64,000 nt of DNA, taken from IMG/VR virus record IMGVR_UViG_3300045988_171964. One strand, given 5' to 3'. A model generated the notes under the pieces. The model did no database searches, was not told the origin of the DNA, and saw only the letters and a program-made list of their open reading frames with translations. The stretch is from a virus. Shown here piece after piece: positions 1 through 14,350 of this stretch (within the stretch, counting starts at the first letter, position 1; the number at the start of each line of letters is the position of its first letter). The translations under genes and the position numbers were made by a program.

Positions 1-410
1 GCCCACCGATGAGCACACACCGCCCACCGTCTGGACTTATCACCCACCAACACCAAGAGGCACGCCCACCGATGAGGAACACACCGCCCACCGTCTGGAC
101 TTATCACCCACCAACACCAGGAGACACGCCCACCGATGAGCACACACCGCCCACCGTCTGGACTTATCACCCACCAACACCAAGAGGCACGCCCACCGAT
201 GAGGAACACACCGCCCACCGTCTGGACTTATCACCCACCAACACCAGGAGACACGCCCACCGATGAGCACACACCGCCCACCGTCTGGACTTATCACCCA
301 CCAACACCAAGAGGCACGCCCACCGATGAGGAACACACCGCCCACCGTCTGGACTTATCACCCACCAACACCAGGAGACACGCCCACCGATGAGCACACA
401 CCGCCCACCG
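1..410. repeat. Tandem repeat of alternating 63-bp and 64-bp units (127-bp super-unit), about 6.5 units, truncated by the window start
   Basis: Unit A is gcccaccgatgagcacacaccgcccaccgtctggacttatcacccaccaacaccaagaggcac and unit B is the gaggaac/aggagacac variant. They alternate strictly. The ORF track repeats identical 85-aa ORFs every 127 nt. Confidence 0.95.
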
Positions 411-607
411 TTTTATTTTTCCTATATATAATAAGGTATACTATATATAATAAGAAATAAAGATATAACATTATATTTTTATTTAGGTAAACATATATAT
501 TTGTAAATAACTGTAAAAATAAAGAGATATATTGTTTTCAAACGTTAAATATAAGGATAAATCTTTATTTTTTCATCAAATTATTTGGTAGAATAAAGAT
601 AAATACG

Positions 608-615
608 TACCTTTG
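608..615 (+). promoter_or_regulatory. Bacteroidota-type -7 promoter box (TACCTTTG, consensus TAnnTTTG)
   Basis: tacctTTGcaaac lies about 50 nt upstream of the ATG at 664, inside a 250-bp AT-rich tract. Confidence 0.55.
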
Positions 616-663
616 CAAACGTAAACAAGAAACAAAATAATAAACGAATAAAAAATTAAAGTT

Positions 664-1032
664 ATGAAAAAGAATTTAGTTATCTCAAGTGTAGCTGCAA
701 TTGCAGCACTTAACCCTGAAGGTTTTACTGTTAACGCTGCAAACTTGCAGCCCGTAACTACAGGTTATGCAGTAGCATTAAAGAAGACACAAAACAGTTT
801 CGGGGCTGAAGGTTTGGCAAAGGTTGCAAACGTAATCGACGAACTCCAGGCTTCAGGTAATTTAAACGGCCGTACCTTAGCATTCGGCGGATGGTATGAT
901 TCCGAAAGCGGTTTATATTATTATGATGCTACAGTAATTTTCGAGGACCGCGATGAAGCTATCGAGGCGGGCCGCGCAAATGAACAACTTGCAATTTTTG
1001 ATCTTGCAAATCTAGAAGAAATTAGACTGTAA
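664..1032 (+). CDS. Hypothetical protein (122 aa), first gene of the cassette array
   Basis: Clean ORF downstream of a TAnnTTTG box. It is followed by a GC hairpin at 1046-1066. Confidence 0.65.
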   Translation: MKKNLVISSVAAIAALNPEGFTVNAANLQPVTTGYAVALKKTQNSFGAEGLAKVANVIDELQASGNLNGRTLAFGGWYDSESGLYYYDATVIFEDRDEAIEAGRANEQLAIFDLANLEEIRL

Positions 1033-1045
1033 TACATAGGAACAC

Positions 1046-1066
1046 GGGGGCCGCTCCGGCGGTCCC
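1046..1066 (+). terminator. GC-rich hairpin at a cassette boundary
   Basis: gggggccgc-tccg-gcggtccc stem-loop lies directly before the next cassette motif. There is no clear U-tract. Confidence 0.4.
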
Positions 1067-1097
1067 TATTATAGAAACTTTTTAAAATTTAGAAATC
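1067..1097 (+). promoter_or_regulatory. Cassette junction motif (TATTATAGAAC-N-AAAATTT-AGRAAT-ATG family)
   Basis: tattatagaaactttttaaaatttagaaatc abuts the ATG at 1098. Confidence 0.6.
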
Positions 1098-1346
1098 ATG
1101 AAAGAATTTTTTAAGATATTGGCAAATATGGAGATTACAAGTTTTATCTTGGTAATTATCCCCGTACCTTTTTTGTTAGGCGCTTTTTATACCGCTTATA
1201 ACTTGGTTTTTAACGAAGTGGTAAAGAAACAGGTAGCTATTGAAAATTTGTTATTATTAGGTGTTATTGCTGTTTTGATGTATGTTGTATTTGGTACTAT
1301 GTTTAGAATGGACTATAACGAAGCAAAACGAGAATTAAACAAATAA
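1098..1346 (+). CDS. Small membrane protein (82 aa, two hydrophobic segments)
   Basis: The ORF starts directly after the cassette motif. Hydrophobic stretches are ITSFILVIIPVPFLLGAFY and LLLLGVIAVLMYVVFG. Confidence 0.6.
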   Translation: MKEFFKILANMEITSFILVIIPVPFLLGAFYTAYNLVFNEVVKKQVAIENLLLLGVIAVLMYVVFGTMFRMDYNEAKRELNK

Positions 1347-1360
1347 TATAAGTACAATTA

Positions 1361-1394
1361 TATAGACTATAGAACTTTTTAAAATTTAGAAATT
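1361..1394 (+). promoter_or_regulatory. Cassette junction motif (variant)
   Basis: tatatagactatagaactttttaaaatttagaaatt abuts the ATG at 1395. Confidence 0.55.
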
Positions 1395-1832
1395 ATGAGT
1401 ACTAAAAGATATAATACCAAAACATTTGATTTTGTAGTTAACGGCGAACACGTTTATTTTACATGTGATACGACCAACACAAAAAACGGCTTCTGCCATC
1501 ATTTTTTTGCAAGTGGAGGCGGCAAATATTACGAACATTCCCGCGTGTCTTATTTAAATAGGACCTGGGAGTCTTTTGAGTATGAAACGGCGCTTTTGCA
1601 CGCCGTGGATAAATTCCCTAAAAGTATGCGCGTACCTTTGCGCCTGGAGATCCAGGCAGTAGCACAAAACGAACACGAGAAAGCAGAAGCTTTTTATAAG
1701 GCGTTCGCGGCTAACTTCGCGGCGTTGAGTACTGAACAAAAGAAATTTGTGCAGGATCATACACCTGTTATTAACAACATGAACCAGGCTAAAACCGTTA
1801 ACGCGGCCGTTGCTATGATGGCAGTATTATAA
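1395..1832 (+). CDS. Hypothetical protein (145 aa)
   Basis: ORF directly after the cassette motif. Confidence 0.65.
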   Translation: MSTKRYNTKTFDFVVNGEHVYFTCDTTNTKNGFCHHFFASGGGKYYEHSRVSYLNRTWESFEYETALLHAVDKFPKSMRVPLRLEIQAVAQNEHEKAEAFYKAFAANFAALSTEQKKFVQDHTPVINNMNQAKTVNAAVAMMAVL

Positions 1833-1874
1833 TATATTTTAAAGATTCCAGGGTGCAAAGGTTTGAGGCCTTGG

Positions 1875-1892
1875 CGGGGGATCATTCCCCCG
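1875..1892 (+). terminator. GC hairpin at a cassette boundary
   Basis: cggggga-tcat-tcccccg, a 7-bp stem. Confidence 0.4.
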
Positions 1893-1900
1893 GTACCCCC

Positions 1901-1930
1901 TATTATAGAACATTTAAAATTTTTAGAGTT
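1901..1930 (+). promoter_or_regulatory. Cassette junction motif
   Basis: tattatagaacatttaaaatttttagagtt abuts the ATG at 1931. Confidence 0.6.
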
Positions 1931-2206
1931 ATGGCAAAGTATACAAAGGAAATGGAATATAACGAACTTGCAAAACGCGGGGAGTGTTTTTGTGAAACTA
2001 GTAATTGCGGCGGTTATGGTATTGTTGTTAACGCCGGCAGCGATGCTGTATTGTGGCGCCGTTATTGTATGGACCAGGAACACACGGCGCAAAGATGGCA
2101 GGAAATTAAATACACGTTTCCAAGAAACGAGGAGGCGGAGGCGCGTCCTTATTTCACGGTGTACGGTACCCGTTATTATCTCGATAACTTTATGAGATGT
2201 GCGTAA
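1931..2206 (+). CDS. Cys-rich hypothetical protein (91 aa, MAKYTKEMEY...)
   Basis: This internal ATG of track ORF 1853..2206 is the one positioned directly after the cassette motif. Confidence 0.6.
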   Translation: MAKYTKEMEYNELAKRGECFCETSNCGGYGIVVNAGSDAVLWRRYCMDQEHTAQRWQEIKYTFPRNEEAEARPYFTVYGTRYYLDNFMRCA

Positions 2207-2215
2207 AAATACCCC

Positions 2216-2240
2216 GGTACCCTGGATATTTCAGGGTACC
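2216..2240 (+). terminator. Hairpin at a cassette boundary (GGTACCCTG / CAGGGTACC)
   Basis: Perfect 9-bp stem with a 7-nt loop. Confidence 0.45.
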
Positions 2241-2254
2241 CACAAAATAACTAT

Positions 2255-2282
2255 ATTATAGAATCTTTAAAATATTAAGATC
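2255..2282 (+). promoter_or_regulatory. Cassette junction motif
   Basis: tattatagaatctttaaaatattaagatc abuts the ATG at 2283. Confidence 0.55.
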
Positions 2283-2543
2283 ATGAATAATTATAATATC
2301 ATTTTTTCACGCCGTCCAGGTACGGCCGAACTAGTAAGCATTTTATTTGCGGTGTGTGCCCTTCTATTTGCACGCCTGAACAAAAGTACCTTTGCGGCTA
2401 TAAAATCCGCCTGGCAGTGGCTTTTTAAGCCTGAAACTTACTTTGCAAGTGACGGCGAAGGCGTGACAGTTAACGGGCTGCAAATTATAGGTCTTAATCT
2501 AATTACCGCGGCCGTGTGTTTGATATTATCAATATCTTTATAA
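2283..2543 (+). CDS. Small membrane protein (86 aa)
   Basis: ORF directly after the motif. Hydrophobic segments are LVSILFAVCALLFA and IIGLNLITAAVCLILSI. Confidence 0.6.
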   Translation: MNNYNIIFSRRPGTAELVSILFAVCALLFARLNKSTFAAIKSAWQWLFKPETYFASDGEGVTVNGLQIIGLNLITAAVCLILSISL

Positions 2544-2688
2544 TGATATTCTTTTTCAAGCTTTAAATAACAGGGTGCAAAGATTTTGAGATCTCCAGGC
2601 GGTTCGCGGACCGCCGGCACCTTCTAACAAGGTGATAAAAGCCGCTTTTATAGCGGGTGTAAAATACCACTAGGAATTAATAAATATA

Positions 2689-2717
2689 TATTATAGAACA
2701 TTTAAATTTTTAAGGTT
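2689..2717 (+). promoter_or_regulatory. Cassette junction motif
   Basis: tattatagaacatttaaatttttaaggtt abuts the ATG at 2718. Confidence 0.6.
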
Positions 2718-3392
2718 ATGGCTACATGTAATTTTATGAGCGCAAATTGCACCCGCTATTTTGCAATTGGTATGAATCGATACTATACTAAAGAAGACGT
2801 GGAGGAGTGCGACCTGGATCCGGAACTTGAAGGGGAGTTTGATGAGTTCGGAACGGAAACAGATTATGATTTTGCCAAGCAAAATATAGTTTCAGGTCTT
2901 CAGGCGAAGGGCTGGGAGGATTACGACGGGTACGAAGGCGACGCGCGCGTAATTGCTTACAAGGATAAATCACTCGTTTATGGAGGCTGTGAAATTTCAC
3001 TCGAAATAAAAGCCCTGGTGCGTTTCGGTTATTACGAAGGCGCTTGTATGGATCTTTCTGGTAAAGTTACTATAGACTCTGCCGGTGATTACTGGACCGG
3101 CAGCCCTGAATATGATATGTTTGATGATGGCGAATTTAGCGAGGTTTCCGTGGTAGATGATAATTGGACTGGGAACGCCGGTTTAGATCACCTTCAGGCA
3201 AAGAACATTATCAAGAAATTAAACGCTATTATAGAGGATCTGAGAAATGAAGCAGAGTACGTTTTTTCTTGCTATTGTGGAGAAGAGTTGGCCGTTGCAT
3301 ACCACTGTAGTAACGGGGAAACAGGCTACAGCAGAATCGAAAAAAGACTCTATCAAGAAGTAGACGAAACGAAGCCTAACAAGGCAGCATAA
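2718..3392 (+). CDS. Acidic hypothetical protein (224 aa, D/E-rich)
   Basis: ORF directly after the motif. Acidic runs include DLDPELEGEFDEFGTETDYD. Confidence 0.7.
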   Translation: MATCNFMSANCTRYFAIGMNRYYTKEDVEECDLDPELEGEFDEFGTETDYDFAKQNIVSGLQAKGWEDYDGYEGDARVIAYKDKSLVYGGCEISLEIKALVRFGYYEGACMDLSGKVTIDSAGDYWTGSPEYDMFDDGEFSEVSVVDDNWTGNAGLDHLQAKNIIKKLNAIIEDLRNEAEYVFSCYCGEELAVAYHCSNGETGYSRIEKRLYQEVDETKPNKAA

Positions 3393-3401
3393 ACGCAAAA
3401 C

Positions 3402-3430
3402 GGGGTACCCCTGGAGGCTTCAGGGTACCC
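3402..3430 (+). terminator. Hairpin at a cassette boundary (GGGTACCCCTG / CAGGGTACCC)
   Basis: Stem-loop homologous to the hairpin at 4690-4710. Confidence 0.45.
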
Positions 3431-3458
3431 ACTATTATAAAATGTGTAAAATATCACT

Positions 3459-3487
3459 TATTATAGAACATCTGAAATTTTAAGGTT
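3459..3487 (+). promoter_or_regulatory. Cassette junction motif
   Basis: tattatagaacatctgaaattttaaggtt abuts the ATG at 3488. It is preceded by aaaatatcact. Confidence 0.6.
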
Positions 3488-3766
3488 ATGAAAGAATTAA
3501 AGAAATTAGCTATCTTATTACGTGCACTTGGTTTTAAGGTAGAAGTGGAAAATGAAACAATTAGTTTTGGCGACGGTGCTGTATATGATAATATCTTTGC
3601 TGCTGTCGATTTGGCAAACTGCCACTGGGACATCTGGCACGAAGGCAGAACGTTTGAGGTACACTTTTTCGCAAATAATGAGTGTATTTATGATCAGGTG
3701 TACTTCTCATTTCAGTTCGACGTTATCAAACAGATTTTTATCGATTACGACAAATACGGGAAATAA
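3488..3766 (+). CDS. Hypothetical protein (92 aa)
   Basis: ORF directly after the motif. Confidence 0.6.
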   Translation: MKELKKLAILLRALGFKVEVENETISFGDGAVYDNIFAAVDLANCHWDIWHEGRTFEVHFFANNECIYDQVYFSFQFDVIKQIFIDYDKYGK

Positions 3767-3827
3767 GCCTGTGAAGGCTTCCGGGTACCCCTGGAGTCTT
3801 CTTTATAGGCTGCAAAGAATATCACTC

Positions 3828-3858
3828 TATTATTGAACATTTTAAATTTTGAAGAATT
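3828..3858 (+). promoter_or_regulatory. Cassette junction motif
   Basis: tattattgaacattttaaattttgaagaatt abuts the ATG at 3859. Confidence 0.55.
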
Positions 3859-4683
3859 ATGGAAACAAAGATAGATTTAAATAATTTAGAGAAAGAAAAT
3901 ATCGTGAATATCGCGGACCGCCTGGGCGTTTTGTCTGAAGACTCAGGAGATGTTTTCCTGTGGTTTTATGATACTCTTTCTGCCCCAACATCAAAAACTT
4001 TCAGCAGCGAGGAAAACGCGAAGGAGTACGGAATTTTGAGAAATGAGTTTTACATGCGCCGTGGCTTGATTGAACGCGATGAGCCAAAAAACTATATTAT
4101 AGGCTCGGAAAAAGATTACCGGAACGCCGTGAAGGCCTGGCAACGTCGCAAGAAAAACGAGGAAGTAAGAAAGTACCGCGAACACGTCGATAAACTCGTG
4201 GACCGCACAAACAAAGAAATTATAGCCCTGAAGGCACTCAAAGATGTTTGCTGTACCTTCGACGGCAAAGTGATAAATAAGCGCTTCCTGGACGCTGCAA
4301 CGAAGGCGACGGGCTTTAATTGTAGTTTCTGTGAAGACTGCCTGTTTATGTTTGCTATTAATTCATACGGGGAGTATGCTCCAGGTATTACGCTTTATCC
4401 TACTTCATGCTCTAAGATATATAAGGCGTGGGAATGGACCACGGGCGACCGTATGGAGGCAGAAAAAGCCCTGGGCGTGATCGACGGGTATATTCTGGAT
4501 AAAAGGCAGGATATTGCCAAATATAAAGAAAGTACTAAACATTATGCTAAGTACGTGGAACAGGTACGCAAAATTGAGGCTGCATTCCATGAATTGATAA
4601 AAACCGACGATACAATAAAAAGCTGGGCGCGTGAACACGACCTGGAAAAATACCCGCTTGTTAGTCACATCTGGGCATTCTAG
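3859..4683 (+). CDS. Hypothetical protein (274 aa)
   Basis: ORF directly after the motif. Confidence 0.7.
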   Translation: METKIDLNNLEKENIVNIADRLGVLSEDSGDVFLWFYDTLSAPTSKTFSSEENAKEYGILRNEFYMRRGLIERDEPKNYIIGSEKDYRNAVKAWQRRKKNEEVRKYREHVDKLVDRTNKEIIALKALKDVCCTFDGKVINKRFLDAATKATGFNCSFCEDCLFMFAINSYGEYAPGITLYPTSCSKIYKAWEWTTGDRMEAEKALGVIDGYILDKRQDIAKYKESTKHYAKYVEQVRKIEAAFHELIKTDDTIKSWAREHDLEKYPLVSHIWAF

Positions 4684-4689
4684 CAGCTA

Positions 4690-4710
4690 GCCCTGGAGGC
4701 TATCCAGGGC
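4690..4710 (+). terminator. Hairpin at a cassette boundary (GCCCTGG / CCAGGGC)
   Basis: gccctgg-aggctat-ccagggc. Confidence 0.45.
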
Positions 4711-4740
4711 ACCTGTTTATAGAAAGTGTGAAATATTACT

Positions 4741-4771
4741 TATTATAGAACGTTTTAAATTTTGAGGATTT
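4741..4771 (+). promoter_or_regulatory. Cassette junction motif
   Basis: tattatagaacgttttaaattttgaggattt abuts an ATG at 4772, not the ATG at 4841. Confidence 0.6.
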
Positions 4772-4840
4772 ATGATTAATACGAAATTATATGTAGATAT
4801 TCTGAGCCGCTAGGCAAAGAAGGATGGCCGGCCACACGAA

Positions 4841-5482
4841 ATGGCACTGAGTGATTTTTGCGACTTCCTTCTTGATTTGTTCAGCGTAGAGGCATTCAAG
4901 GGCAAAGGAGCAGATAGCTTGAAAAACTGGTTCGATGAACGTATCGGCAAAAAGCCTGATTTCGGGCTGCTGGCTACTAACTGGCTTGTAGATGTTAGCA
5001 CGGCACTCCAGAAGGGCACTTGGCTCGATGCTTTCGGCATTCTTTATGAGGATATGTATCTATCACGCGGCAAGGCTTCTCAGACAGGGCAATTTTTTAC
5101 GCCTAAGGATGTTTCCGACCTGGTAAGTGATATTATAGGCTCGAAAGAAAAACAGGCTTCTAGCCCCGTTATTTCGGGCAAAATGGTAAATGATTGTGCA
5201 GCTGGCAGTGGCCGCCTTCTTCTTTCTCATTTCGCAAAGATGAGCAGCCCTGATCCTTCAGTTGGTAGAACTTATAAATATATTGCCCAGGATTCAGATC
5301 CGCTGGCATGTAAGATGTGCGCCCTGAACATGATGGCACACGGTATGAACGGCGTCGTTATCTGCCAGGACACTTTGGCGATGAGTAAACCAACGGCAAC
5401 GTATTACATAAACGAAGTGAAATATCCGTTTATCACGCCTTTTTATAGCGTGCGTATTGTATCAGGGAATCCTCAAAAGTAG
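4841..5482 (+). CDS. SAM-dependent N6-adenine DNA methyltransferase-like protein (gamma/HsdM-like order), ending at a degenerate motif IV. The motif-positioned start is 4772, with an in-frame TAG at 4811.
   Basis: Motif X-like GQFFTP, motif I-like NDCAAGSGRLLL, then QDTL. The protein ends in SGNPQK where NPPF/Y would be expected. Confidence 0.6.
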   Translation: MALSDFCDFLLDLFSVEAFKGKGADSLKNWFDERIGKKPDFGLLATNWLVDVSTALQKGTWLDAFGILYEDMYLSRGKASQTGQFFTPKDVSDLVSDIIGSKEKQASSPVISGKMVNDCAAGSGRLLLSHFAKMSSPDPSVGRTYKYIAQDSDPLACKMCALNMMAHGMNGVVICQDTLAMSKPTATYYINEVKYPFITPFYSVRIVSGNPQK

Positions 5483-5489
5483 GATTCCC
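5465..5489 (+). terminator. Hairpin overlapping the stop codon
   Basis: gggaatcc-tcaaaagta-ggattccc, an 8-bp stem. Confidence 0.4.
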
Positions 5490-5508
5490 TGGGAATAGAA
5501 AGAAACAT

Positions 5509-5536
5509 ATTATAGAACATTTAAAATTTTAAGGTT
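5509..5536 (+). promoter_or_regulatory. Cassette junction motif
   Basis: tattatagaacatttaaaattttaaggtt abuts the ATG at 5537. Confidence 0.6.
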
Positions 5537-6175
5537 ATGGAAAAGAAAAAGAAATTAGATGTATCAAACATCGACCTGGTAAGCTTCGAAGGCTTTTATC
5601 AGACTATCTGGGATTCTTCTTTTGAGGTATCAGATTACGAGTACCGGAACGAAGTTGTAGAGGATGAGGATTTCACCTTCAATGAAGACAGCTACCAGAA
5701 GGCAGTTTGCGAGGCATACACCAAGCAGTGGGAACGTTGGCTCCAGCAGTATGTTTGCAAAGATATTAAATTGTCCTTCGTAGGCGTGCAGCACCCTCTG
5801 GCTTATAACTTCAGTACCGATACTATCCAGGTTAAAATCGGGCTATCTAGCGAGGCAAAGAAGGCAATTATAGCAAAGGTAAGAAATCACCGTGAAGAGA
5901 TAGCCGGCTGGATCAAGGAAAATCACTCTTCCAGCGATGGTTTCTGGTCCTTTCTGAGTAATGATATTAAAGACTGGAACCGTGCAGCCTTATTCAACCA
6001 TACGAGCGACCGTCAGGAAGCCTATCTTGCCTACATGCTGTATTATATAGTGAAGGCTGAAATCGGGGCTAAGAACGGCGACGACCGCCTGGAGATGATG
6101 GCTTATTACAACATCTTCGAGCAGATGAGCATCACAGAGTTTATCACATACCCTGGCAATAATAAGGCAGCCTGA
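5537..6175 (+). CDS. Hypothetical protein (212 aa)
   Basis: ORF directly after the motif. Confidence 0.7.
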   Translation: MEKKKKLDVSNIDLVSFEGFYQTIWDSSFEVSDYEYRNEVVEDEDFTFNEDSYQKAVCEAYTKQWERWLQQYVCKDIKLSFVGVQHPLAYNFSTDTIQVKIGLSSEAKKAIIAKVRNHREEIAGWIKENHSSSDGFWSFLSNDIKDWNRAALFNHTSDRQEAYLAYMLYYIVKAEIGAKNGDDRLEMMAYYNIFEQMSITEFITYPGNNKAA

Positions 6176-6200
6176 GCGCTGCCCTATTATTGCCCATCGG

Positions 6201-6237
6201 AAAAATTAGAAATCACTCATTATAGAACAGATAGAAA
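6201..6237 (+). promoter_or_regulatory. Cassette junction motif (variant)
   Basis: aaaaattagaaatcactcattatagaacagatagaaa abuts the ATG at 6238. Confidence 0.5.
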
Positions 6238-6594
6238 ATGAAGAAATCATCAGCTATATATAATTTCGCTATATCGCAGCAGCAGGGTAAAATCCTGCTG
6301 ACTGCCCAGGAATATCCCTGGAGTGTGCTCCAGGTAATCACTTTCGAGCCACAATATTTCGATAAGGTGGTGGCGCTTTGCAAGCGCCGTGGTATGGTAG
6401 CCACCCACGACAAGGACCGCTCCTTCTGCATCATCCATCTTGGCAGTGGCGACCAGGGCGGCAAATATCCAGATAAGCATATCAATACTGATACGCCAGC
6501 AGCTATCGACAAGTATCTGGAAGCATTGAAAGATGCGATGGCGCAAGCAGTAGTGTGGTATTATAGCAATATTATAGCAACAACGAAAAATTAG
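6238..6594 (+). CDS. Hypothetical protein (118 aa)
   Basis: ORF after the variant motif. Its 3' end carries the next junction motif. Confidence 0.6.
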   Translation: MKKSSAIYNFAISQQQGKILLTAQEYPWSVLQVITFEPQYFDKVVALCKRRGMVATHDKDRSFCIIHLGSGDQGGKYPDKHINTDTPAAIDKYLEALKDAMAQAVVWYYSNIIATTKN

Positions 6595-6599
6595 AAATC
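6570..6599 (+). promoter_or_regulatory. Cassette junction motif (variant, overlaps the upstream coding 3' end)
   Basis: tattatagcaacaacgaaaaattagaaatc abuts the ATG at 6600. Confidence 0.5.
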
Positions 6600-6863
6600 A
6601 TGAGAAAGTTAACAAAGAAAGATAAGGAGTTTTTAAAGAAAATCGGCTATCTCGAAGAGGATTTCAACCAGATAGAAGAAGCTAATTATAAGTATTATAC
6701 TGAAGATGATCAGAGAATCAGCGAGGAGGAAGCTCTTAAAAAGTTAGGTAGAGATCGCTGGCTGTCTGGTATCGGTAGAGCCTGTTTTCATGCTTCTGCT
6801 GTAAGGGAGTGCAAGCGTGGTTCAGAGACCATATATATTAAAAGTGATACTTTCGATAAATAA
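6600..6863 (+). CDS. Hypothetical protein (87 aa)
   Basis: ORF directly after the variant motif. Confidence 0.6.
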   Translation: MRKLTKKDKEFLKKIGYLEEDFNQIEEANYKYYTEDDQRISEEEALKKLGRDRWLSGIGRACFHASAVRECKRGSETIYIKSDTFDK

Positions 6864-6876
6864 TATCACAATCACA

Positions 6877-6907
6877 TATTTATAACAACATTAAAAAATT
6901 AGAAATT
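6877..6907 (+). promoter_or_regulatory. Cassette junction motif (variant)
   Basis: tatttataacaacattaaaaaattagaaatt abuts the ATG at 6908. Confidence 0.5.
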
Positions 6908-7468
6908 ATGAAAGCAAAGAATAATAATAAGAACGGTATGAACGTTATAAAGAATAAGGAGAACGAAGTGCAGGTGACAGAAGAGAGCCGCAAGGCATAC
7001 GGACGGCCATCCATCAACGAGGAGAAGGGCTGGAAGCTGGATCACGTTATCCCTTTTGACTTCTATCACAACGCTTATATCAAGAGCCGCAAGGGTATCG
7101 ATGAGCTTGTGAAGATGGTGCTGCAGGAGTGTAATATCAGCCCTGACGATACCTGCTCTTGGGCAAAGGACATCCGCACGATTATTAAGCATAGTATTGA
7201 GAACTATGACAAGCTTTTGGAGGAGAGCGAGGACACTCCGGACGAAGAGGACCTGAACCTATCAGGGTGTTTGATTGGCGATGCAATCGAATTTCGGCAT
7301 GAGGCTTTTTATCCTGCCGATTACATCGCTCCTCATACCTTTGAGGAGACGAAAGAGGAATACGTTCGGGAAGGTAACTGGAAGAGTTTTCTGGCCTTTA
7401 ATAGTATGACCGAGGAGGAATATAAGGAGTATTACAACAAACACTATTTTCCTGCTGATGTAGCATAG
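6908..7468 (+). CDS. Acidic hypothetical protein (186 aa), last gene of the cassette array
   Basis: ORF after the variant motif, E/D-rich. It is followed by structured GC-rich sequence and a hairpin plus T-run at 7563-7590. Confidence 0.65.
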   Translation: MKAKNNNKNGMNVIKNKENEVQVTEESRKAYGRPSINEEKGWKLDHVIPFDFYHNAYIKSRKGIDELVKMVLQECNISPDDTCSWAKDIRTIIKHSIENYDKLLEESEDTPDEEDLNLSGCLIGDAIEFRHEAFYPADYIAPHTFEETKEEYVREGNWKSFLAFNSMTEEEYKEYYNKHYFPADVA

Positions 7469-7562
7469 AAATCCCCTACCCCGTCCGGCAGACCGGCAAG
7501 CGTGGAGCGACACCGCCACGGGGTGCGTTATTTTAAACATAACTTTAAGATTTTAATTGTTT

Positions 7563-7590
7563 TGCGGAAGCGTCCGCATTTGTTTTAGTT
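7563..7590 (+). terminator. Intrinsic-terminator-like hairpin with a T-rich tail
   Basis: gcggaagcgtccgc followed by atttgtttt. Confidence 0.5.
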
Positions 7591-7631
7591 TACAGGCTGT
7601 CTGCGGTCTGTGAGGATAGCAGCAGCAATTT

Positions 7632-7693
7632 CGCCTATGGTTGGCCGAGGATGATATGCTTCATCCTTCAGGGTCCGAATCCCTGGTGGGCGA
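7632..7693 (+). other. tRNA-like element: acceptor-like pairing, one 7-bp hairpin and a T-arm-like hairpin, with no D-arm
   Basis: cgcctat pairs with gtgggcg (2 G-T pairs). caggg-tccgaat-ccctg resembles a T-arm (canonical loop TTCGAAT). aggatga-tatgct-tcatcct sits in the anticodon-arm position. Confidence 0.3.
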
Positions 7694-7755
7694 CAAGAGA
7701 AGAAAAGAAGATAAAAAGGTGTTGAGAATTTACTTTGCAAATAAAACAAACGTTA

Positions 7756-7795
7756 AAAATGCACCTAAAAGCGCAATTAAAGTGCATTTTATTTG
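7756..7795 (+). terminator. Hairpin with a T-rich tail
   Basis: aaaatgcac-N17-gtgcatttt followed by atttgg. Confidence 0.35.
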
Positions 7796-7815
7796 GTAGT
7801 TTCAGAAATTCTTTG

Positions 7816-7823
7816 TACCTTTG
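7816..7823 (+). promoter_or_regulatory. Bacteroidota-type -7 box (TACCTTTG)
   Basis: ctttgtaccTTTGcaaatag lies about 90 nt upstream of the ATG at 7911. Confidence 0.55.
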
Positions 7824-7910
7824 CAAATAGAAAAAAACAAGAAGATAAATAAAAACAATAACCGGCTGTGCCAGATAGCCAAATAAGTCTCAAGGGCATG
7901 AGCAGAGAAT

Positions 7911-9290
7911 ATGATTATTACTTTCAAGGAGTTTAAGACAAAAGTTCGTAACAACGCTATCGTATGTTTCGGATCATTCAGATTTGACGAGGCGGAAGAG
8001 ACCAAGGGTCGCGAGGTTTCTATCCATCGTTTCGGTAAGAGCACGCAGTACCAATTTTGCGATGCTTCCTGCATCTTTGACCTTCCGCTTGTAGATAGCT
8101 ATAAGATGGATGTTTATACTGAGCATGAGTATTATGGTTATGGAAGTTATTACGGAACTTACTACGTAAAAGAGGACACTCCTGTAGATTTCGCTGCTAA
8201 TAAGTTCTTTATCATCGCTCCTGACTTCCTCGTTGACATCGAGAAGGCTTATAAGCGCAAGAATGATTATAAGCACTGCTGCATCAATAACTACGTGATT
8301 TCTTCCGTTTCCGTAGCTTGTGCTACCTGGATGCGTCTTACTGACTACCTGAAGGGCAAAAATGAGGTGGAGTTTCTGGATGGCACTATCCGTATCGGTG
8401 AGTGCGAGAAGGATGAAGCCAAGTTAACGGCAAAGGTACGCAAGTACATCGGTTTCGCTGAGAAGGCATTCAAGAAGTATCTTGAAAAGAACGGTCTTGC
8501 CAACGAAAACGAGTATCTGGATATGCTTGCACGTAAGGAAGCAGAGAAGAAGGAGGAGGAGAAGGCAGCGAAAAAAGCTGAGAAGGCGAGAGCTAAGGAA
8601 CTGGCTTATATAAATGACCATATTTTCATTCAGAACAAACGAAATTCGGAAGCCTACAAGCAGGTTATCAATCGCCTGAATACTGGTTCTCATCTGGACG
8701 AATTAAGTGCTTATATTGGAAGAGAAAATGGCATAAATTGTTATGAATCCAGGGATTTTGACGGATATAGTAAGAGCTGTCGTTTCCCTATGATACGCCG
8801 CTCATTTAGCCTGTACTTGAAGAAGGGATATAATATCCATATCGTGGGCGGTCTGATTACCTTTGTGCGTGGAGAAATCAAACGTAGTGGTGTGGCTTGC
8901 GAATGGATTGAGCAGGGCAGGGCTATTGATGATATTGAGACCGTGAAGGGCTTCCTGGTAAGGGGTGAACACATCGTGGCAAAGTCTCTGAAGGAGGCGC
9001 AGCGTATCAATGCGGAGAAGCGAAATAAGCAGGCTCTTAGCCTACTGAATGCCAGAAGCAAGAATCAGCTCATTTACCAGAAGGTAGGAGATCACATGTT
9101 CACCTTTGAGGAGTCTTTGGCTTCCGGCAACTGCCGTCCTGGTACTCAGAACTTCAAAAACCGCTACGAGGCTGCCATCGGTCACGAGGCCACCGAGATT
9201 TCGCTTGCCGACCTTCGTAAGTATGGTAAGAAGTTCGGTCTTGAAGAATATACCGAGCGTGTTATCCGCTATGTTATGAACAGATTGTAG
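7911..9290 (+). CDS. Hypothetical protein (459 aa) with a central K/E/A-rich coiled-coil-like tract
   Basis: Long clean ORF. The tract is RKEAEKKEEEKAAKKAEKARAKE. Confidence 0.75.
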   Translation: MIITFKEFKTKVRNNAIVCFGSFRFDEAEETKGREVSIHRFGKSTQYQFCDASCIFDLPLVDSYKMDVYTEHEYYGYGSYYGTYYVKEDTPVDFAANKFFIIAPDFLVDIEKAYKRKNDYKHCCINNYVISSVSVACATWMRLTDYLKGKNEVEFLDGTIRIGECEKDEAKLTAKVRKYIGFAEKAFKKYLEKNGLANENEYLDMLARKEAEKKEEEKAAKKAEKARAKELAYINDHIFIQNKRNSEAYKQVINRLNTGSHLDELSAYIGRENGINCYESRDFDGYSKSCRFPMIRRSFSLYLKKGYNIHIVGGLITFVRGEIKRSGVACEWIEQGRAIDDIETVKGFLVRGEHIVAKSLKEAQRINAEKRNKQALSLLNARSKNQLIYQKVGDHMFTFEESLASGNCRPGTQNFKNRYEAAIGHEATEISLADLRKYGKKFGLEEYTERVIRYVMNRL

Positions 9291-9313
9291 AATTATATAT
9301 TACTTTATAGAAT

Positions 9314-9538
9314 ATGGAAAAAATAATATTATCACCCTTGCAGCTATCCTCAGTAGCCAAAAGCTACTATGAGGGTAGCATCCCTAAGAACACTTACGGG
9401 ATGGAGAAGTATGTAGCCACCGATGGCGAGAATGCGATGTTTGTAAAATCAGACTATCAGCCTGCACCGGGCGAAGTAGTCTTTTATATCAAGCGCATGA
9501 GATCAGAGCTGTACTGCCAGCTCTATAAAGAATCATAA
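9314..9538 (+). CDS. Hypothetical protein (74 aa)
   Basis: ORF in a tight co-oriented operon. Confidence 0.55.
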   Translation: MEKIILSPLQLSSVAKSYYEGSIPKNTYGMEKYVATDGENAMFVKSDYQPAPGEVVFYIKRMRSELYCQLYKES

Positions 9539-9551
9539 AATACTTGGAGAT

Positions 9552-10079
9552 ATGGCAAAAAGAGAAATTCCCCTGTTTATTATAGACACGCTGCGAAATC
9601 ACAAGCGTGGTGAGTGTGACTTCCTCGTCTGCACTGATAAGGATTGCGGTTTTATCGCGAAGGTAGATTACATCGACGAGGAAAAGGAGGAGGTGGGCGA
9701 TGATTACCGCATCGGTTTTCCTCGCCGTGGTTGCAGCTTGAGAATCAAGATTCATCAGATGATAGGTCAGCACCCTGATACGGGCAGAATAAGAACCTTG
9801 CTGAAGAAGGGTATGGAGTACTTCATGAAGGCTGTTACCTGCGAGGTTCACGTAAACAATCCGAGCCGCGAGGAGTGTGCTGACTTCCTGAATACGCTGG
9901 TCCGTATGAATAGGCAGTATGTTGACGATGCCGGCTCAGACTATCACGCCCGCCAGGCTACCATCCACACCATTATGATGCTGGAGGCTACGAGAAAGCT
10001 CCTTCTGGAAAAGCAGGAAGGTATCGGGATTGAGAACGGCGGCGATAATGATCCGCTCAAAGGTGTAGATTTTAAGTAA
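9552..10079 (+). CDS. Hypothetical protein (175 aa)
   Basis: ORF in a tight operon. Confidence 0.65.
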   Translation: MAKREIPLFIIDTLRNHKRGECDFLVCTDKDCGFIAKVDYIDEEKEEVGDDYRIGFPRRGCSLRIKIHQMIGQHPDTGRIRTLLKKGMEYFMKAVTCEVHVNNPSREECADFLNTLVRMNRQYVDDAGSDYHARQATIHTIMMLEATRKLLLEKQEGIGIENGGDNDPLKGVDFK

Positions 10080-10080
10080 T

Positions 10081-10119
10081 AATCATTCAGCCCTCGACAT
10101 CATGGTTAAGTCATAAGAT
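10081..10119 (+). promoter_or_regulatory. Conserved leader, copy 1 (AGCCCT...stem-loop...AAGATATG family)
   Basis: aatcattcagccctcgacatcatggttaagtcataagat abuts the ATG at 10120. Confidence 0.5.
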
Positions 10120-10665
10120 ATGAAGATTTTAGAAACAAATACGAGAACTTTGGTTGTTTCCCAAAACGCTGATGGTTCTTTACTTATTACAGAAAAAGGT
10201 TTGCCAATCAAGAATGCAGGTAACTTCATCCTTAATCTCGGTGGCATTGATGCTGTTCTGGCAAAATGCAAGGATATGACTGAAGAGGAACTTCTGGCAG
10301 AGAAGAAGAGTAAGTTGAAAAAGCAGAAAGCAAAACATGAAGAACTGCAACGCAGAATCTTGGCGGAGAATGCTCTGATTGAAACAGCATACAAGAAAGT
10401 GTTTACTGATGGTGCAACTGTTGAGTCTACTCCTCATAATATTTATGTATTGCTTTCTTTCCTTAATACGCAAAATTGGGGAATGTGGAATTTGCCAAAA
10501 ATGACTATTGGCTACAAGTGTAATCAATATGATTGTGATGGCAAACAGGCAACTACCATCATTCTTGATAAGCCAATCCTCTATAAAGGAGAAATGCTTT
10601 CACACATCCAGGTTGGTGCACCACGTGGGCATCTTACGCAATATGCAAGATTATCTTTTAACTAA
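10120..10665 (+). CDS. Hypothetical protein (181 aa)
   Basis: ORF after the conserved leader. Confidence 0.65.
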   Translation: MKILETNTRTLVVSQNADGSLLITEKGLPIKNAGNFILNLGGIDAVLAKCKDMTEEELLAEKKSKLKKQKAKHEELQRRILAENALIETAYKKVFTDGATVESTPHNIYVLLSFLNTQNWGMWNLPKMTIGYKCNQYDCDGKQATTIILDKPILYKGEMLSHIQVGAPRGHLTQYARLSFN

Positions 10666-10671
10666 TTATAT

Positions 10672-10705
10672 AGCCCTAGGCGCAGCACGGTTAAGCGAAA
10701 AGAAT
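10672..10705 (+). promoter_or_regulatory. Conserved leader, copy 2
   Basis: agccctaggcgcagcacggttaagcgaaaagaat abuts the ATG at 10706. Confidence 0.5.
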
Positions 10706-11017
10706 ATGGAGAATATATTAGCAAAGACGGTGAAGGAAAATGGAAATATCGACTTAAACGAATTAAGTTGGAAGCAGGTCGTTGCACTCCTTGGTGCCTG
10801 GGATTCCAGATTCGCAAGAAATGAGAACACGTCGTTCTCGGAGATGGTGAAGCGATGCTATAAATCACGTCCGTGGCACGAGAATGCGAATATCATCTAT
10901 TTGCATCGAAATAATCAGAAAACCACCATTCTTCCTCATGCCTGTTATAACCTCGACGAAGCAGAGGAAGATATGATATTTAATTTGCTCAAAAAGCAAT
11001 TTCTACAGAAGTTGTAG
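10706..11017 (+). CDS. Hypothetical protein (103 aa, MENILAKTV...)
   Basis: This internal ATG of track ORF 10508..11017 follows the leader and does not overlap the upstream gene. Confidence 0.6.
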   Translation: MENILAKTVKENGNIDLNELSWKQVVALLGAWDSRFARNENTSFSEMVKRCYKSRPWHENANIIYLHRNNQKTTILPHACYNLDEAEEDMIFNLLKKQFLQKL

Positions 11018-11027
11018 AATAAAAAAT

Positions 11028-11047
11028 GCCCCGACCGAAGCCGGGGC
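11028..11047. terminator. GC hairpin (GCCCCG / CGGGGC) with an A-run on its 5' side
   Basis: aaaaaat-gccccgaccgaagccggggc at the start of a 280-bp structured non-coding stretch. Confidence 0.35.
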
Positions 11048-11270
11048 AACCGCGAGCCTTCTGGCTCGAATCTACTATAGTAGAAATTTGGCTCTTTAAG
11101 AGCGTTTGAATCCACAGACTTTTGAAAGTCTGACCGTCAACGGAAGTTTTATGTTTCTTTTTATTCCATAAAGGTACGATTGAAATCTTCCGAAGATGGT
11201 GCAAATTTAAAAAATAAAACAATACGGTGTATCAATTTACTCGAAAAATTATAGAATTTTAAGTTTTCAA

Positions 11271-11303
11271 AGCCCTACCGCATCGCGGATAAGCGGAATA
11301 AAG
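11271..11303 (+). promoter_or_regulatory. Conserved leader, copy 3
   Basis: agccctaccgcatcgcggataagcggaataaag abuts the ATG at 11304. Confidence 0.5.
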
Positions 11304-11582
11304 ATGTTTAAGATATTGCACGCCTTCCTTGATTATCCCTTCTGCTCGTTCGAGTTTCTAAACCTCGACACTCAGGAGCATATATTTGCCTCATTCTTCG
11401 ATGATCCTCTCTATGAGCTTCAGAAAGAGTGCGGAGTGAATTACGACCACGAATTAGAAGGGAAGATAATAGAGAAGATTCCGTCCGATTTGCGCATACA
11501 TACCAGGGAGTATGCCGTTATCAGGGCGCAACAATATTTGGAGGGTTCTTGGTTCTTTCCCTGGCTAAAGAAGAAAAAGTAA
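11304..11582 (+). CDS. Hypothetical protein (92 aa)
   Basis: ORF after the conserved leader. Confidence 0.6.
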   Translation: MFKILHAFLDYPFCSFEFLNLDTQEHIFASFFDDPLYELQKECGVNYDHELEGKIIEKIPSDLRIHTREYAVIRAQQYLEGSWFFPWLKKKK

Positions 11583-11585
11583 TAT

Positions 11586-11625
11586 AATCATTCAGCCCTA
11601 CGCATCACGGATAAGCGGAAAAGAT
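11586..11625 (+). promoter_or_regulatory. Conserved leader, copy 4
   Basis: aatcattcagccctacgcatcacggataagcggaaaagat abuts the ATG at 11626. Confidence 0.5.
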
Positions 11626-12189: not shown

Positions 12190-12209
12190 TCACTCCTCGT
12201 TATATATAA

Positions 12210-12231
12210 CATCGGTGAAACTTCACCGATG
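12210..12231 (+). terminator. Hairpin after 11626..12189
   Basis: catcggtga-aact-tcaccgatg, a 9-bp stem. Confidence 0.4.
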
Positions 12232-14320: not shown

Positions 14321-14350
14321 CAATTATAGAACAATTTTAAAACTAAAATT
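14321..14350 (+). promoter_or_regulatory. Cassette junction motif (outlying copy)
   Basis: caattatagaacaattttaaaactaaaatt abuts the ATG at 14351. Confidence 0.5.

Follow-up and report, generated by a model that had tools for sequence, protein, structure and literature searches.

In temperate phages, accessory genes known as morons are scattered and expressed from host promoters, and the leading regions of conjugative plasmids hold gene banks with single-strand promoters formed by hairpins. Closer to the locus described here are the promoter-early stem-loops (PeSLs) of T4-type phages (Arbiol et al. 2010, PMC2839356; Comeau et al. 2014, PMC4122927), experimentally proven promoter and terminator cassettes which bound insertions and deletions in these phages. 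The locus analysed here belongs to an uncultured ~100-kb gut phage that has promoters of the Bacteroidota type and encodes ParA as well as a Rep flanked by iterons; the latter two suggest a plasmid-like carrier state, and this Bacteroidota phage is possibly a phage-plasmid. Within the window (the whole 64-kb stretch of DNA under analysis), positions 1040-7470 are best explained as a hyperplastic accessory-gene region built of self-contained expression cassettes.

Organization of the array

Host-type promoters, called by the Bacteroidota consensus of -33 TTTG and -7 TAnnTTTG (PMC7366714), were located by a TAnnTTTG scan of the window at 608, 7816, 19256, 45090 and 52397. P608, a near-perfect host promoter (TTTG 584-587, spacer 20 nt, TACCTTTG 608-615), lies directly 5' of the array and could feed it entirely if the hairpins leak; the next one 3' of the array has TTTG at 7792-7795 and TACCTTTG at 7816-7823. 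Gene 664 appears to be driven by P608 and is kept in the A, intermediate and B lineages (see below) and in more distant phages; its AF2 model (pLDDT 72) gave no Foldseek match and its profile no match in the PDB. In circular assemblies, a divergent HTH repressor-like gene (PHROG families 3 and 8) is found just upstream of the array. The motif TATTATAGAAC-ATTTAAAATTTTAAGG-ATG is present as 9 strong and 3 degenerate copies before consecutive + strand genes, from 1098 to 6908. The single-gene array proposed in an earlier note on this DNA is therefore real, but its motif-led genes number 12 rather than about 13, gene 664 having a host-type promoter. The features are as follows.

584..615, +: P608, host-type (Bacteroidota sigma-A) promoter (direct reading, TAnnTTTG scan; consensus from PMC7366714)
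664..1032, +: gene 664, first of the block, 122 aa, pI 4.4 (comparison of relatives)
1046..1067, +: GC-rich hairpin of 9 bp, junction -19.7 kcal/mol, abutting motif copy 1 (fold prediction)
1067..1097, +: motif copy 1, TATTATAGAAA...AGAAATC, then cassette 1098-1346 (core scan, nhmmer)
1365..1394, +: motif copy 2, GACTATAGAAC..., then cassette 1395-1832, 145 aa (nhmmer); fold prediction gives no hairpin at this junction
1851..1900, +: two-tier hairpin module GGGTGCAAAGG..GGGGGATCATTCCCCC..GGTACC (variants, consensus fold)
1901..1930, +: motif copy 3, then cassette 1931-2206, 91 aa (core scan, nhmmer)
2216..2240, +: hairpin GGTACCCTGGA...TCAGGGTACC, 3' of cassette 1931 (fold prediction)
2254..2282, +: motif copy 4, then cassette 2283-2543 (core scan, nhmmer)
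2571..2671, +: two-tier hairpin 2571-2621, small hairpin and U box 2642-2671, reading TTTATAG..GTGTAAAATACCAC (fold, repeat family D6)
2689..2717, +: motif copy 5, then cassette 2718-3392, 224 aa, pI 4.2 (consensus scan, nhmmer)
3403..3458, +: hairpin GGGTACCCCTGGAGGCTTCAGGGTACCC 3403-3431, then U box 3433-3458, a diverged tandem motif copy without ATG (fold, repeat families D6 and D8, alignment)
3459..3487, +: motif copy 6, then cassette 3488-3766, 92 aa, pI 4.8 (consensus scan, nhmmer)
3766..3826, +: hairpin 3766-3811 and U-like box ending AATATCAC (fold, alignment)
3828..3858, +: motif copy 7, TATTATTGAAC, then cassette 3859-4683, 274 aa (core scan, nhmmer)
4690..4740, +: hairpin GCCCTGGAGGCTATCCAGGGC 4690-4710 and U box 4711-4740 (fold, repeat family D6, alignment)
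4741..4771, +: motif copy 8, then cassette 4772-5482 (direct reading, relatives)
5462..5490, +: hairpin CAGGGAATCCT..AGGATTCCCTG across the stop codon of 4772-5482 (direct reading)
5508..5536, +: motif copy 9, perfect consensus, then cassette 5537-6175, 212 aa, pI 4.9 (consensus scan, nhmmer)
6166..6237, +: hairpin 6166-6183, U-like box and shortened motif (CATTATAGAAC just 9 nt from the ATG), then 6238-6594, 118 aa (core scan, fold)
6563..6907, +: degenerate copies 6563-6599 and 6876-6907, before genes 6600-6863 and 6908-7468 (repeat family D5)
7470..7600, +: hairpin cluster with T-tracts, closing the array (fold)
14322..14350, +: outlying motif copy, AATTATAGAAC..., then gene 14351-15163, 270 aa (core scan, nhmmer)

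A profile made from the copies gave 9 strong nhmmer matches in the 64-kb window (E <= 4e-5, all on the + strand), ending at the ATGs of 1098, 1395, 1931, 2283, 2718, 3488, 3859, 4772 and 5537, and weak matches at 6213, 14317 and 11248, the rest of the 64 kb being empty. The last two correspond to the outlying copies reported earlier, one full before 14351 (a good copy, core 10/11) and one partial near 11246. With up to 3 mismatches the 32-nt consensus occurred 3 times vs 0 in 100 shuffles, and with up to 1 mismatch the 11-nt core occurred 12 times vs a mean of 1.8 expected from shuffles; an independent repeat finder recovered the same families (D1-D6, D8). The motif is thus statistically real, strand-specific and, within the window, restricted to the array, as it is in the remainder of one relative's genome. 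The copies at 6238, 6600 and 6908, degenerate in the window, are intact in relatives.

The products had been described as unrelated and often acidic or membrane proteins, in agreement with our data: BLASTP detected no similarity among them, 4 have a pI of 4.2-4.9, and the small proteins of cassettes 1098-1346 (82 aa) and 2283-2543 (86 aa) have two hydrophobic segments each. For the early timing and the host-takeover or anti-defence role suggested earlier, which are no more than possible, the sole functional hint comes from 4772-5482, a truncated type I methyltransferase-like gene with an in-frame TAG at 4811-4813 in the window and 235-236 aa in relatives; the others are ORFans. Cassette 3859-4683 is present in 29/30 relatives.

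GC-rich hairpins, noted previously at many junctions, are predicted in 9/12 window junctions, and 84% of 188 unique A-type junctions fold at <= -10 kcal/mol vs 45% of shuffles. The two-tier module is reused after several different cassettes in relatives (45 sequence variants), its pairs being preserved by compensatory changes in the consensus fold. Many hairpins have no clear U-tract and the core TATTAT or TATTGT often follows directly 3' (within 4 nt in 108/110 B-type junctions), so that some of the core might also serve as the tail of a terminator; by their appearance, the hairpins are putative terminators or insulators. In roughly half of the junction types there is additionally an upstream AATATCAC box or a tandem copy of the motif that has diverged, and tandem core copies without an ATG (U box) are common. 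The two junctions previously given as ~80% identical (3402-3487 and 4690-4771) do align over ~90 columns (3396-3490 and 4684-4774), equivalent cross-junction BLAST matches showing 77-79% identity.

A core that differs between phage lineages

Among 212 unique copies, information peaks at TAT-TATAGAA-C (~2 bits per position), with no conservation 5' of it, and the core-to-ATG distance is 26-28 nt in 97% of 474 motif-led ORFs. A spacing held to +/-1 nt would equally suit an RNA-level role. The array-specific core occupies -32 to -22, 21-23 nt before the ATG. The ATG-proximal 12-14 nt (A at -11 to -14 and -5/-6, G/A at -4, T at -1) are an ordinary Bacteroidetes start-codon context, common to 49 non-array window genes; the published context is enriched in A at -3, -6 and -11 to -15 (PMC7366714). 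Hence, while the block abuts the ATG, as had been claimed for a motif at zero spacing, its array-specific portion is limited to the 11-nt core and TTTAAAA. Leaderless or near-leaderless mRNAs, an earlier suggestion, are unlikely given this general context and the position of the core, which predicts a 5' UTR of ~17-24 nt and fits the modal 23-nt 5' UTR of B. thetaiotaomicron (PMC7366714). The core lacks palindromic symmetry and fits neither the Bacteroidota -33/-7 consensus nor the sigma-70 -35/-10 pair, which upholds the earlier distinction between the junction signal and the host-type promoters listed above.

A sister (B) lineage shows the same hairpin-motif-ATG layout with the core switched to TATTGTCTAAC, at a fixed 23-25 nt from the ATG; at least 19 cassettes follow one another, and 39 gene families are represented. 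A loci (810 kb) contain 458 occurrences of TATTATAGAA and none of TATTGTCTAA; for B loci (327 kb) the figures are 3 and 77, respectively. Counts across loci include contig pieces that overlap, unique sequences being used where stated. The A and B cores are mutually exclusive between lineages, and host-type TAnnTTTG promoters occur elsewhere in both. In the intermediates L246 and L249, host-type-promoter cassettes with a P608-like leader alternate with motif-headed cassettes, and one intermediate variant has its core ~45 nt from the ATG; the core therefore behaves like an exchangeable promoter and not like ribosome-binding context.

Cassette turnover among relatives

The array is common to ~30 related genomes. 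The 30 complete arrays represent 29 architectures of collinear order, a single gene family occupying two slots, so that the earlier idea of shuffling was overstated as regards reordering. Recombination at the junctions was, by contrast, supported: relatives show gain, loss and replacement of cassettes with breakpoints exactly at the motif. Invariant content, named beforehand as the observation that would speak against this idea, is thus not what the relatives display. In L001, L018 and L045, homology is lost from the ATG that follows one motif and returns where the next motif begins, and the single motif of the relative aligns to both window copies; shared homology at breakpoints amounts to 24-33 nt. 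Sequence 5' of the core correlates with the gene upstream (k-mer similarity 0.42 vs 0.21) and sequence 3' of it with the gene downstream (identity 0.77 vs 0.60): a hairpin moves together with the gene it follows, a leader with the gene it precedes.

Proposed mechanism and alternatives

Direct observation covers the layout of the units, the restriction of the motif to the array, indels bounded by motif copies and the switch of the core between lineages. The best explanation (probability about 0.6) is a set of PeSL-like cassettes, each combining a terminator-like hairpin, a promoter specific to the lineage and a short leader, which are exchanged through recombination within the motif. Each unit would be an ORF followed by a GC-rich, structure-conserved hairpin, and units would be joined by a ~32-nt module made of (i) a lineage-specific promoter-like core, TATTATAGAAC, with TTTAAAA, and (ii) a short A/U-rich leader with the ordinary Bacteroidetes start context, placing the ATG 26-28 nt away from the core. 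Since its copies are direct repeats, homologous recombination within the module would delete, insert or replace whole cassettes while sparing the expression signals, yielding arrays of equal order and differing content. We infer that the core has promoter activity and the hairpins terminator activity, as well as where transcription starts and what reads the core. The most likely reader is a factor that the phage lineage itself specifies, as opposed to the host sigma-A holoenzyme acting alone; this could be a sigma-like protein or an activator that works with host RNA polymerase, as at T4 late promoters, or else an unrecognised polymerase. Neither Pfam nor PHROGs revealed an RNA polymerase, sigma factor or activator in the window and the remaining structural region of a relative, and the DxDxD motif of two-barrel polymerases is absent from all large proteins.

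It is rather unlikely that the array is instead covered by one long early transcript from P608, the hairpins stabilising RNA 3' ends or marking sites for processing, like the RNase III sites that separate T7 early genes, and the module working on RNA as an endonuclease site and as a translation-initiation region optimised for internal cistrons in a host without Shine-Dalgarno pairing. The near-perfect host promoter directly upstream, the spacing fixed to +/-1 nt in both lineages and the typical Bacteroidetes initiation context of the proximal half (PMC7366714) would suit such a transcript, but the most conserved part, TATTATAGAAC, lies outside the start context common to other genes and is missing from all other operons of the same phage. 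Hairpins that mostly have no U-tract and abut the motif are likewise compatible with it; however, relatives carry host-type promoters at equivalent junctions, implying that the hairpins do stop transcription. Although the failure to find a phage RNA polymerase or sigma factor also points this way, a concerted, mutually exclusive core switch is unexpected for host ribosome or RNase recognition, and neither the variant with its core ~45 nt from the ATG nor the common U boxes agree with it.

Less probable still, the core could be an operator through which a phage regulator, with the divergent HTH repressor-like protein as candidate and the scattered asymmetric C1 operators of phage P1 as model, acts over weak degenerate host -7-like promoters and silences the cassettes in the carrier state suggested by ParA and Rep. 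The repressor-like gene adjoins the array, but the motif was not found in the divergent repressor/P608 control region; TATTATAG fits TAnnTTTG at 4/6 specified positions, but the core has no -33 element or other promoter consensus; and the core switch would fit co-evolution with a phage DNA-binding protein, whereas an operator needs no fixed ATG spacing and the core is not palindromic. Integron-like site-specific recombination with the hairpins as attC, suggested by single ORFs that all point the same way, each with a variable, imperfect palindrome behind it, and by the fit of the B-type core GTCTAAC to the RYYYAAC inverse core, is highly improbable and is contradicted by the absence of an integrase from Pfam annotations of the window or flanking loci, the misfit of the A-type core ATAGAAC, palindromes without a complementary GTTRRRY partner, breakpoint homology of the length found, as for homologous exchange, and collinear gene order.

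Comparison with known systems

Like morons and plasmid leading regions, the PeSL-like cassettes favoured here would be autonomous accessory genes with their own promoter and terminator, and they are small, diverse, often of unknown or possibly anti-defence function, and placed beside a genome end or control region; here, unlike there, a single shared double-strand motif heads every unit. T7 RNA polymerase promoters read TAATACGACTCACTATAG and those of SP6 ...CACTATAGAAG. The extended AAATATCACTTATTATAG-AAC fits the T7 consensus at 13/18 in the same register, and also SP6 CTATAGAA; if transcription started at the G, the leader would measure 22-24 nt, and lineage-specific promoter variants recall the T7/T3/SP6 pattern. 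On the other hand, ~105 kb of genome coverage yielded no T7-like polymerase and the upstream ATCAC part is present in just about half of the copies; the resemblance may serve as a lead. T4 late promoters have one -10-like element, TATAAATA, whose recognition depends on gp55, a sigma-like phage protein. They share with the core a short, phage-specific, AT-rich single block with no -35 partner, near the putative transcription start, but here no gp55-like or other sigma-like protein was detected and the element is restricted to the accessory-gene array instead of late genes.

PeSLs are likewise small repeated intergenic modules of stem-loop and promoter (the activity being presumptive here) which end at the ribosome-binding region and start codon, are concentrated 5' of ORFans in hyperplastic regions, and bound insertions, deletions and replacements between close relatives that homologous recombination explains. 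The present phage is not T4-like, its host phylum is Bacteroidota, and its units, 12-19 in number, form one contiguous array. PeSL promoters fit the host sigma-70 consensus, whereas no host consensus fits this core, which changes from one phage lineage to the other. Single genes are thus gained, lost and swapped at a conserved, non-host-like signal, as in T4-type phages, with a putative reader specified by the phage.

A repeated hairpin and motif module separates the genes of the array

Region 1-8000 of the window was read directly and its ORFs were listed, which gave 12 successive genes, each with an AT-rich block directly 5' of its start:

584-615, P608, host-type (Bacteroidota sigma-A) promoter heading gene 664
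664-1032, gene 664 (122 aa)
1098-7468, plus strand, array of single-gene cassettes, with gene starts at 1098, 1395, 1931, 2283, 2718, 3488, 3859, 4772, 5537, 6238, 6600 and 6908

The blocks comprise 9 strong and 3 degenerate copies of a motif. A profile built from the copies gave 9 matches with E<=4e-5, all on the plus strand, all within the array and all ending at the ATG; the only others in the 64 kb were weak matches at 6213, 14317 and 11248. The long consensus had no match in shuffled controls, the 11-nt core was observed 12 times versus a mean of 1.8 in shuffles, and an independent repeat finder returned the same motif families, along with a second box and hairpin arms that also recur between junctions. 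The repeated junctions of a single-gene array described in the earlier note are thus real, and the similarity it reported between two of them extends throughout, junctions 3396-3490 and 4684-4774 being alignable end to end. Its picture of small, unrelated, often acidic or membrane products also held: we found no mutual relatedness, four products have a pI of 4.2-4.9, and two small proteins each carry two hydrophobic segments.

GC-rich hairpins are predicted in 9 of the 12 window junctions, and 84% of 188 unique junctions fold at -10 kcal/mol or below, versus 45% of shuffles. A 50-nt two-tier hairpin recurs behind five different cassettes in 45 sequence variants, its pairing preserved by compensatory changes; an Rfam search of window 1-8000 returned no credible family, for this hairpin or otherwise.

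Scanning IMG/VR for the motif pattern yielded 45 loci on ~25 contigs of 58-109 kb, with 4-10 motif copies per locus in a single orientation. Among 212 unique copies, information peaks at TAT-TATAGAA-C, followed by TTTaAAAA-TT-TT and a purine pair; upstream of the core, conservation is limited to a blurred A-rich/ATCAC signal. In 97% of 474 motif-led ORFs, the distance between the T of TATAGAA and the ATG is 26, 27 or 28 nt. The final 12-14 nt before the ATG (A at -11 to -14, A at -5/-6, G/A at -4, T at -1) are shared with the start context of 49 other window genes and agree with that of Bacteroidetes, which is enriched in A at -3, -6 and -11 to -15, without Shine-Dalgarno use (PMC7366714). Since this stretch is common to non-array genes, the array-specific element is the core plus TTTAAAA, from -32 to about -14. 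Transcription starting on the G of TATAG, or slightly past it, would leave a leader of ~17-24 nt, near the modal 5' UTR of 23 nt in B. thetaiotaomicron (PMC7366714), so that the leaderless or very short 5' ends suggested in the earlier note are unlikely. About half of the junction types have an extra box (..GTGTAAAATATCAC) between hairpin and core, which is a diverged tandem motif copy without an ATG.

Apart from the motif, a second conserved element, AGCCCTACCGCATCRCGGATAAGCGGAA, lies directly 5' of start codons (11271-11298 and 11596-11622, with a degenerate copy before 10120). It is GC-rich, with a possible CCGC/GCGG stem, is also present in relatives including L246 and L249, and is a candidate for a translational operator or for a further junction signal. 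The stop/start junction AAAAATAGCGTATG, found 5-6 times between consecutive genes at 35484-39920 versus 0.04 expected by chance, adds a third type of recurring gene boundary to this genome. In a distant phage with a gene-664 homologue (L270, 46-kb contig), AAAAACCCGACCAA is repeated immediately before at least five start codons (9376-14600).

Cassettes are gained and lost at the junctions

ORF clustering of 30 complete arrays revealed 29 different architectures in one collinear order, built from 7 near-universal and ~20 variable cassette families. Just one family was found in two different slots. This family of 72-74 aa (L237 2144-2362 vs L245 452-676), with 68% nucleotide identity confined to the ORF, is the sole departure from the collinear order seen. 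In BLAST comparisons of the window with relatives, homology ends at the ATG behind one motif and restarts where the next motif begins; the flanking segments overlap by 24-33 nt in the relatives' coordinates, so that a single motif in the relative aligns to both window motifs. The cassettes lost were 1098 in L001, 2718 together with 3488 in L018, and 2718 in L045. Over all junction pairs, the sequence before the core tracks the upstream gene (k-mer similarity 0.42 vs 0.21) and the leader after it tracks the downstream gene (identity 0.77 vs 0.60), which points to ATG-ORF-stop-hairpin as the exchangeable unit, with the crossover in the core. The modular architecture and junctional recombination proposed earlier are upheld by these motif-bounded breakpoints and by the variable content of the relatives. 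Ready-made promoter/terminator cassettes would be swapped by recombination in the shared signals, and we hold the cassette-exchange part of this explanation to be very probable from the alignments.

The sole cassette with a family assignment, 4772-5482, is a type I methyltransferase-fold fragment that covers positions 4-121 of the 311 in the Pfam N6_Mtase profile, i.e. just the first third of the domain. Relatives have it intact (235-236 aa); in the window an in-frame TAG stands at 4811-4813, 13 codons past the motif-led ATG, and the gene is either a fresh pseudogene or re-initiated at 4841. The other cassettes are ORFans, and PADLOC matched no cassette but the methyltransferase-like fragment. 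A model of the acidic 224-aa cassette was unusable (pLDDT 43), its alignment being shallow because the homologues among the matches listed are all at least 86% identical. Anti-defence or host-takeover roles for these genes are conjecture, and we infer early timing only from the position of the array adjoining the control region.

The control region and the phage

In circular assemblies, a 2100-2600-aa fibre-like protein, a minus-strand HTH repressor-like gene, P608 and gene 664 precede the array in that order. Between the HTH gene and P608 lies a tandem repeat (window 1-411; period 127 bp in two ~64-bp half-units, 3.2 copies, 100% identical) that is GC-rich in an AT-rich phage. Many family contigs in IMG/VR start 300-800 nt 5' of the gene-664 homologue, which indicates that assemblies break at this repeat; it may serve in regulation or replication, or mark a physical end of the genome. 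In some genomes the same interval includes an optional 498-aa HNH/homing-endonuclease gene (L047, L048 and L050, ~7779-9402). An RVT_1 reverse-transcriptase gene near the tail-fibre genes of one genome (L048 1190-2671) suggests a diversity-generating retroelement.

Homologues of gene 664 form 736 clusters in the protein collection, and human-gut assemblies are the source of contigs that encode an identical protein. Short gene-664 contigs, considered as possible transcripts, are ordinary fragmented metagenome contigs.

The window encodes a 2072-aa tape measure, ParA, a Rep3-like initiator behind 22-bp iterons, a sliding clamp, two DNA methylases, a holin and a PriCT-type primase. Taken with the Bacteroidota promoters and the surroundings of the array, this content identifies a large tailed phage of a Bacteroidota host, possibly a phage-plasmid. 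The maintenance features are:

15348-15607, field of short AT-rich repeats
15830-16702, ParA
17552-17693, 22-bp iteron, 6.8 copies
17829-19112, Rep3-like initiator

These features and the divergent HTH repressor-like gene suggest a phage-plasmid lifestyle. The phage family is common in human gut assemblies. Searches against GenBank phages with the array (megablast) and the capsid protein (tblastn), and against PLSDB plasmids with 24 kb (megablast), gave no match, and with it neither a cultured relative nor a host assignment; when 185,579 species genomes were scanned for the motif, the only matches were 13 chance-like singletons, with no prophage or host copy.

The core is confined to the array and switches between lineages

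The motif is limited to the array and gene 14351. All other operons, including structural and lysis genes, have host-type promoters and tightly packed genes, the window promoters of this type (TTTG, 20 nt, TAnnTTTG) lying at 608, 7816, 19256, 45090 and 52397, among others. In more distant relatives found via their gene-664 homologue (L246 and L249), host-type promoter cassettes, with the same leader as P608, and motif cassettes occupy equivalent slots, and one variant has the core ~45 nt from the ATG. The host-type promoter with leader TACCTTTGCAAAcGTAAACAAGAAACAA is a reused module as well: it heads gene 664, resembles the 7816 promoter (608-640 vs 7816-7848) and recurs in the L246 and L249 arrays.

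A sister lineage (B-type, as opposed to the A-type lineage of the window) was represented by ~30 IMG/VR contigs of 55-123 kb, including L248, L368 and L375. Its arrays, which run to at least 19 cassettes in a row, have the same hairpin-motif-ATG layout, and 39 gene families occur in the lineage; two cassettes are large (476 and 550 aa). The core is TATTGTCTAAC, with the ATG 23-25 nt away, and each cassette has its own, unique hairpin immediately next to CTATTGTCTAACTTAAAA-N5-6-GGAATT-ATG. Between lineages, the cores exclude each other: (i) A loci (810 kb) contain TATTATAGAA 458 times and TATTGTCTAA 0 times, and (ii) B loci (327 kb) contain TATTATAGAA 3 times and TATTGTCTAA 77 times. The switch affects three central positions (TATT-ATAG-AAC in A, TATT-GTCT-AAC in B), while the Bacteroidota host promoters are kept in both lineages. 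Such a concerted change in the most conserved part of all copies is expected from co-evolution with a phage-encoded recognition protein, and would be hard to explain if host ribosomes or host RNases were what recognised the core.

Is the core a promoter?

The restriction of the motif to the array, the mixing of host-type and motif cassettes and the core switch of the sister lineage favour a promoter whose reader is specific to the lineage, and on this comparative evidence we lean somewhat towards the core being a promoter. The main rival is a single transcript from P608 that undergoes processing at the hairpins, the module being an RNA-level signal. This reading accounts for the fixed spacing between core and ATG and for the missing polymerase, but leaves unexplained the lineage switch, the restriction of the motif to the array, the interspersed host promoters and the tandem cores without an ATG. 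An operator for a phage regulator, in the manner of P1 C1, would still require a promoter, and none is visible. As for the TATTnT shared by both cores, it could be a weak -7/-10-like element requiring an activator or, where it abuts a hairpin, the U-rich tail of a terminator; it lies within 4 nt of the hairpin in nearly all B junctions.

Counted against a promoter read by a lineage-specific factor is the failure to find that factor. Pfam and PHROGs detected no polymerase, sigma factor or HTH activator in the window proteome, nor did PHROGs among large ORFs in the other ~40 kb of a relative's genome, and a sequence search of the PDB found no relatives. Gene 664 is not supported in this role because its AF2 model (pLDDT 72) has no Foldseek match at E<0.4, it has no profile match in PDB, and its homologue is itself motif-led in the B lineage and also occurs in phages without arrays. 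Overall, we give a probability of about 0.35 to the full reading, in which an unrecognised transcription-specificity system (a highly divergent polymerase, a sigma-like factor or an activator, possibly virion-delivered) would read an 11-nt promoter and drive an accessory-gene bank of at least 66 families, primed for recombination.

This non-host, lineage-changing signal points to an unknown mode of directing transcription in Bacteroidota, where promoter and translation signals are already unlike textbook ones. The motif is also a cheap sequence tag, a single pattern scan yielding hundreds of candidate accessory, possibly early, genes; the motif-tagged families (27 A-type and 39 B-type) lend themselves to screens for host takeover and anti-defence. 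If the factor that reads them can be found, the A and B motifs are orthogonal candidate expression signals for Bacteroides engineering.

Comparison with known systems

T7-like promoters have a conserved block of ~23 bp, from -17 to +6, with TATA and then a purine start. The extended A-type motif shares 13 of 18 positions with the T7 promoter, and also resembles that of SP6; in the motif, TATA-G is invariant and the upstream ATCAC occurs in only about half of the copies, with a 1-nt jitter. No T7-like RNA polymerase was found by Pfam or PHROG among 64 window proteins, in the large ORFs of the structural region or in the Pfam lists of flanking loci, and the resemblance is only a lead. Two-barrel virion RNA polymerases (crAss-like gp66, the P23-45 tape-measure fusion) are giant virion proteins with DxDxD; [DN]xDxD is absent from the 2605-aa fibre-like protein, the 2072-aa tape measure and the 1226-, 949- and 605-aa proteins. 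N4 promoter hairpins have a fixed geometry, whereas the array hairpins differ in stem, loop and distance. Comparison with crAss-like early promoters is not applicable, as the early transcripts of phi14:2 share no common motif. The Bacteroidota sigma-A consensus is TAnnTTTG at -7 with TTTG ~20 nt upstream (PMC7366714); the array motif has neither a -33 TTTG and -7 TAnnTTTG nor a sigma-70 -35/-10 pair, and the core TATTATAG agrees with the -7 element at 4 of its 6 specified positions, with nothing conserved upstream. GAAC as an ECF-type -35 element was rejected, since the matching -10 would land on the start codon. An integron array was rejected: no integrase domain occurs in the window or flanking loci (Pfam), the A-type core misfits RYYYAAC and has no complementary GTTRRRY partner, and the breakpoints are homology-length rather than site-specific.

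The closest known kind is the promoter-early stem-loop (PeSL) of T4-type phages, in which strong promoter activity and efficient termination have been demonstrated and which delimits the indels between phi1 and RB49 (PMC2839356; PMC4122927); excised mini-circles are a further mark of the class. Like PeSLs, the array has a repeated intergenic composite of stem-loop and promoter-like element ending at the start codon, upstream of ORFans in a plastic region, and its junction modules bound the indels and replacements between relatives. In contrast, the PeSL promoter matches the host primary-sigma consensus and the array motif does not. New with respect to PeSLs are the phylum and type of phage, the arrangement as one long array and, most of all, a non-host core that switches between lineages and has no identifiable reader. 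The T4-type route to gene novelty, by swappable cassettes with a putative promoter and terminator, thus extends to a very different, uncultured phage that is widespread in the gut.
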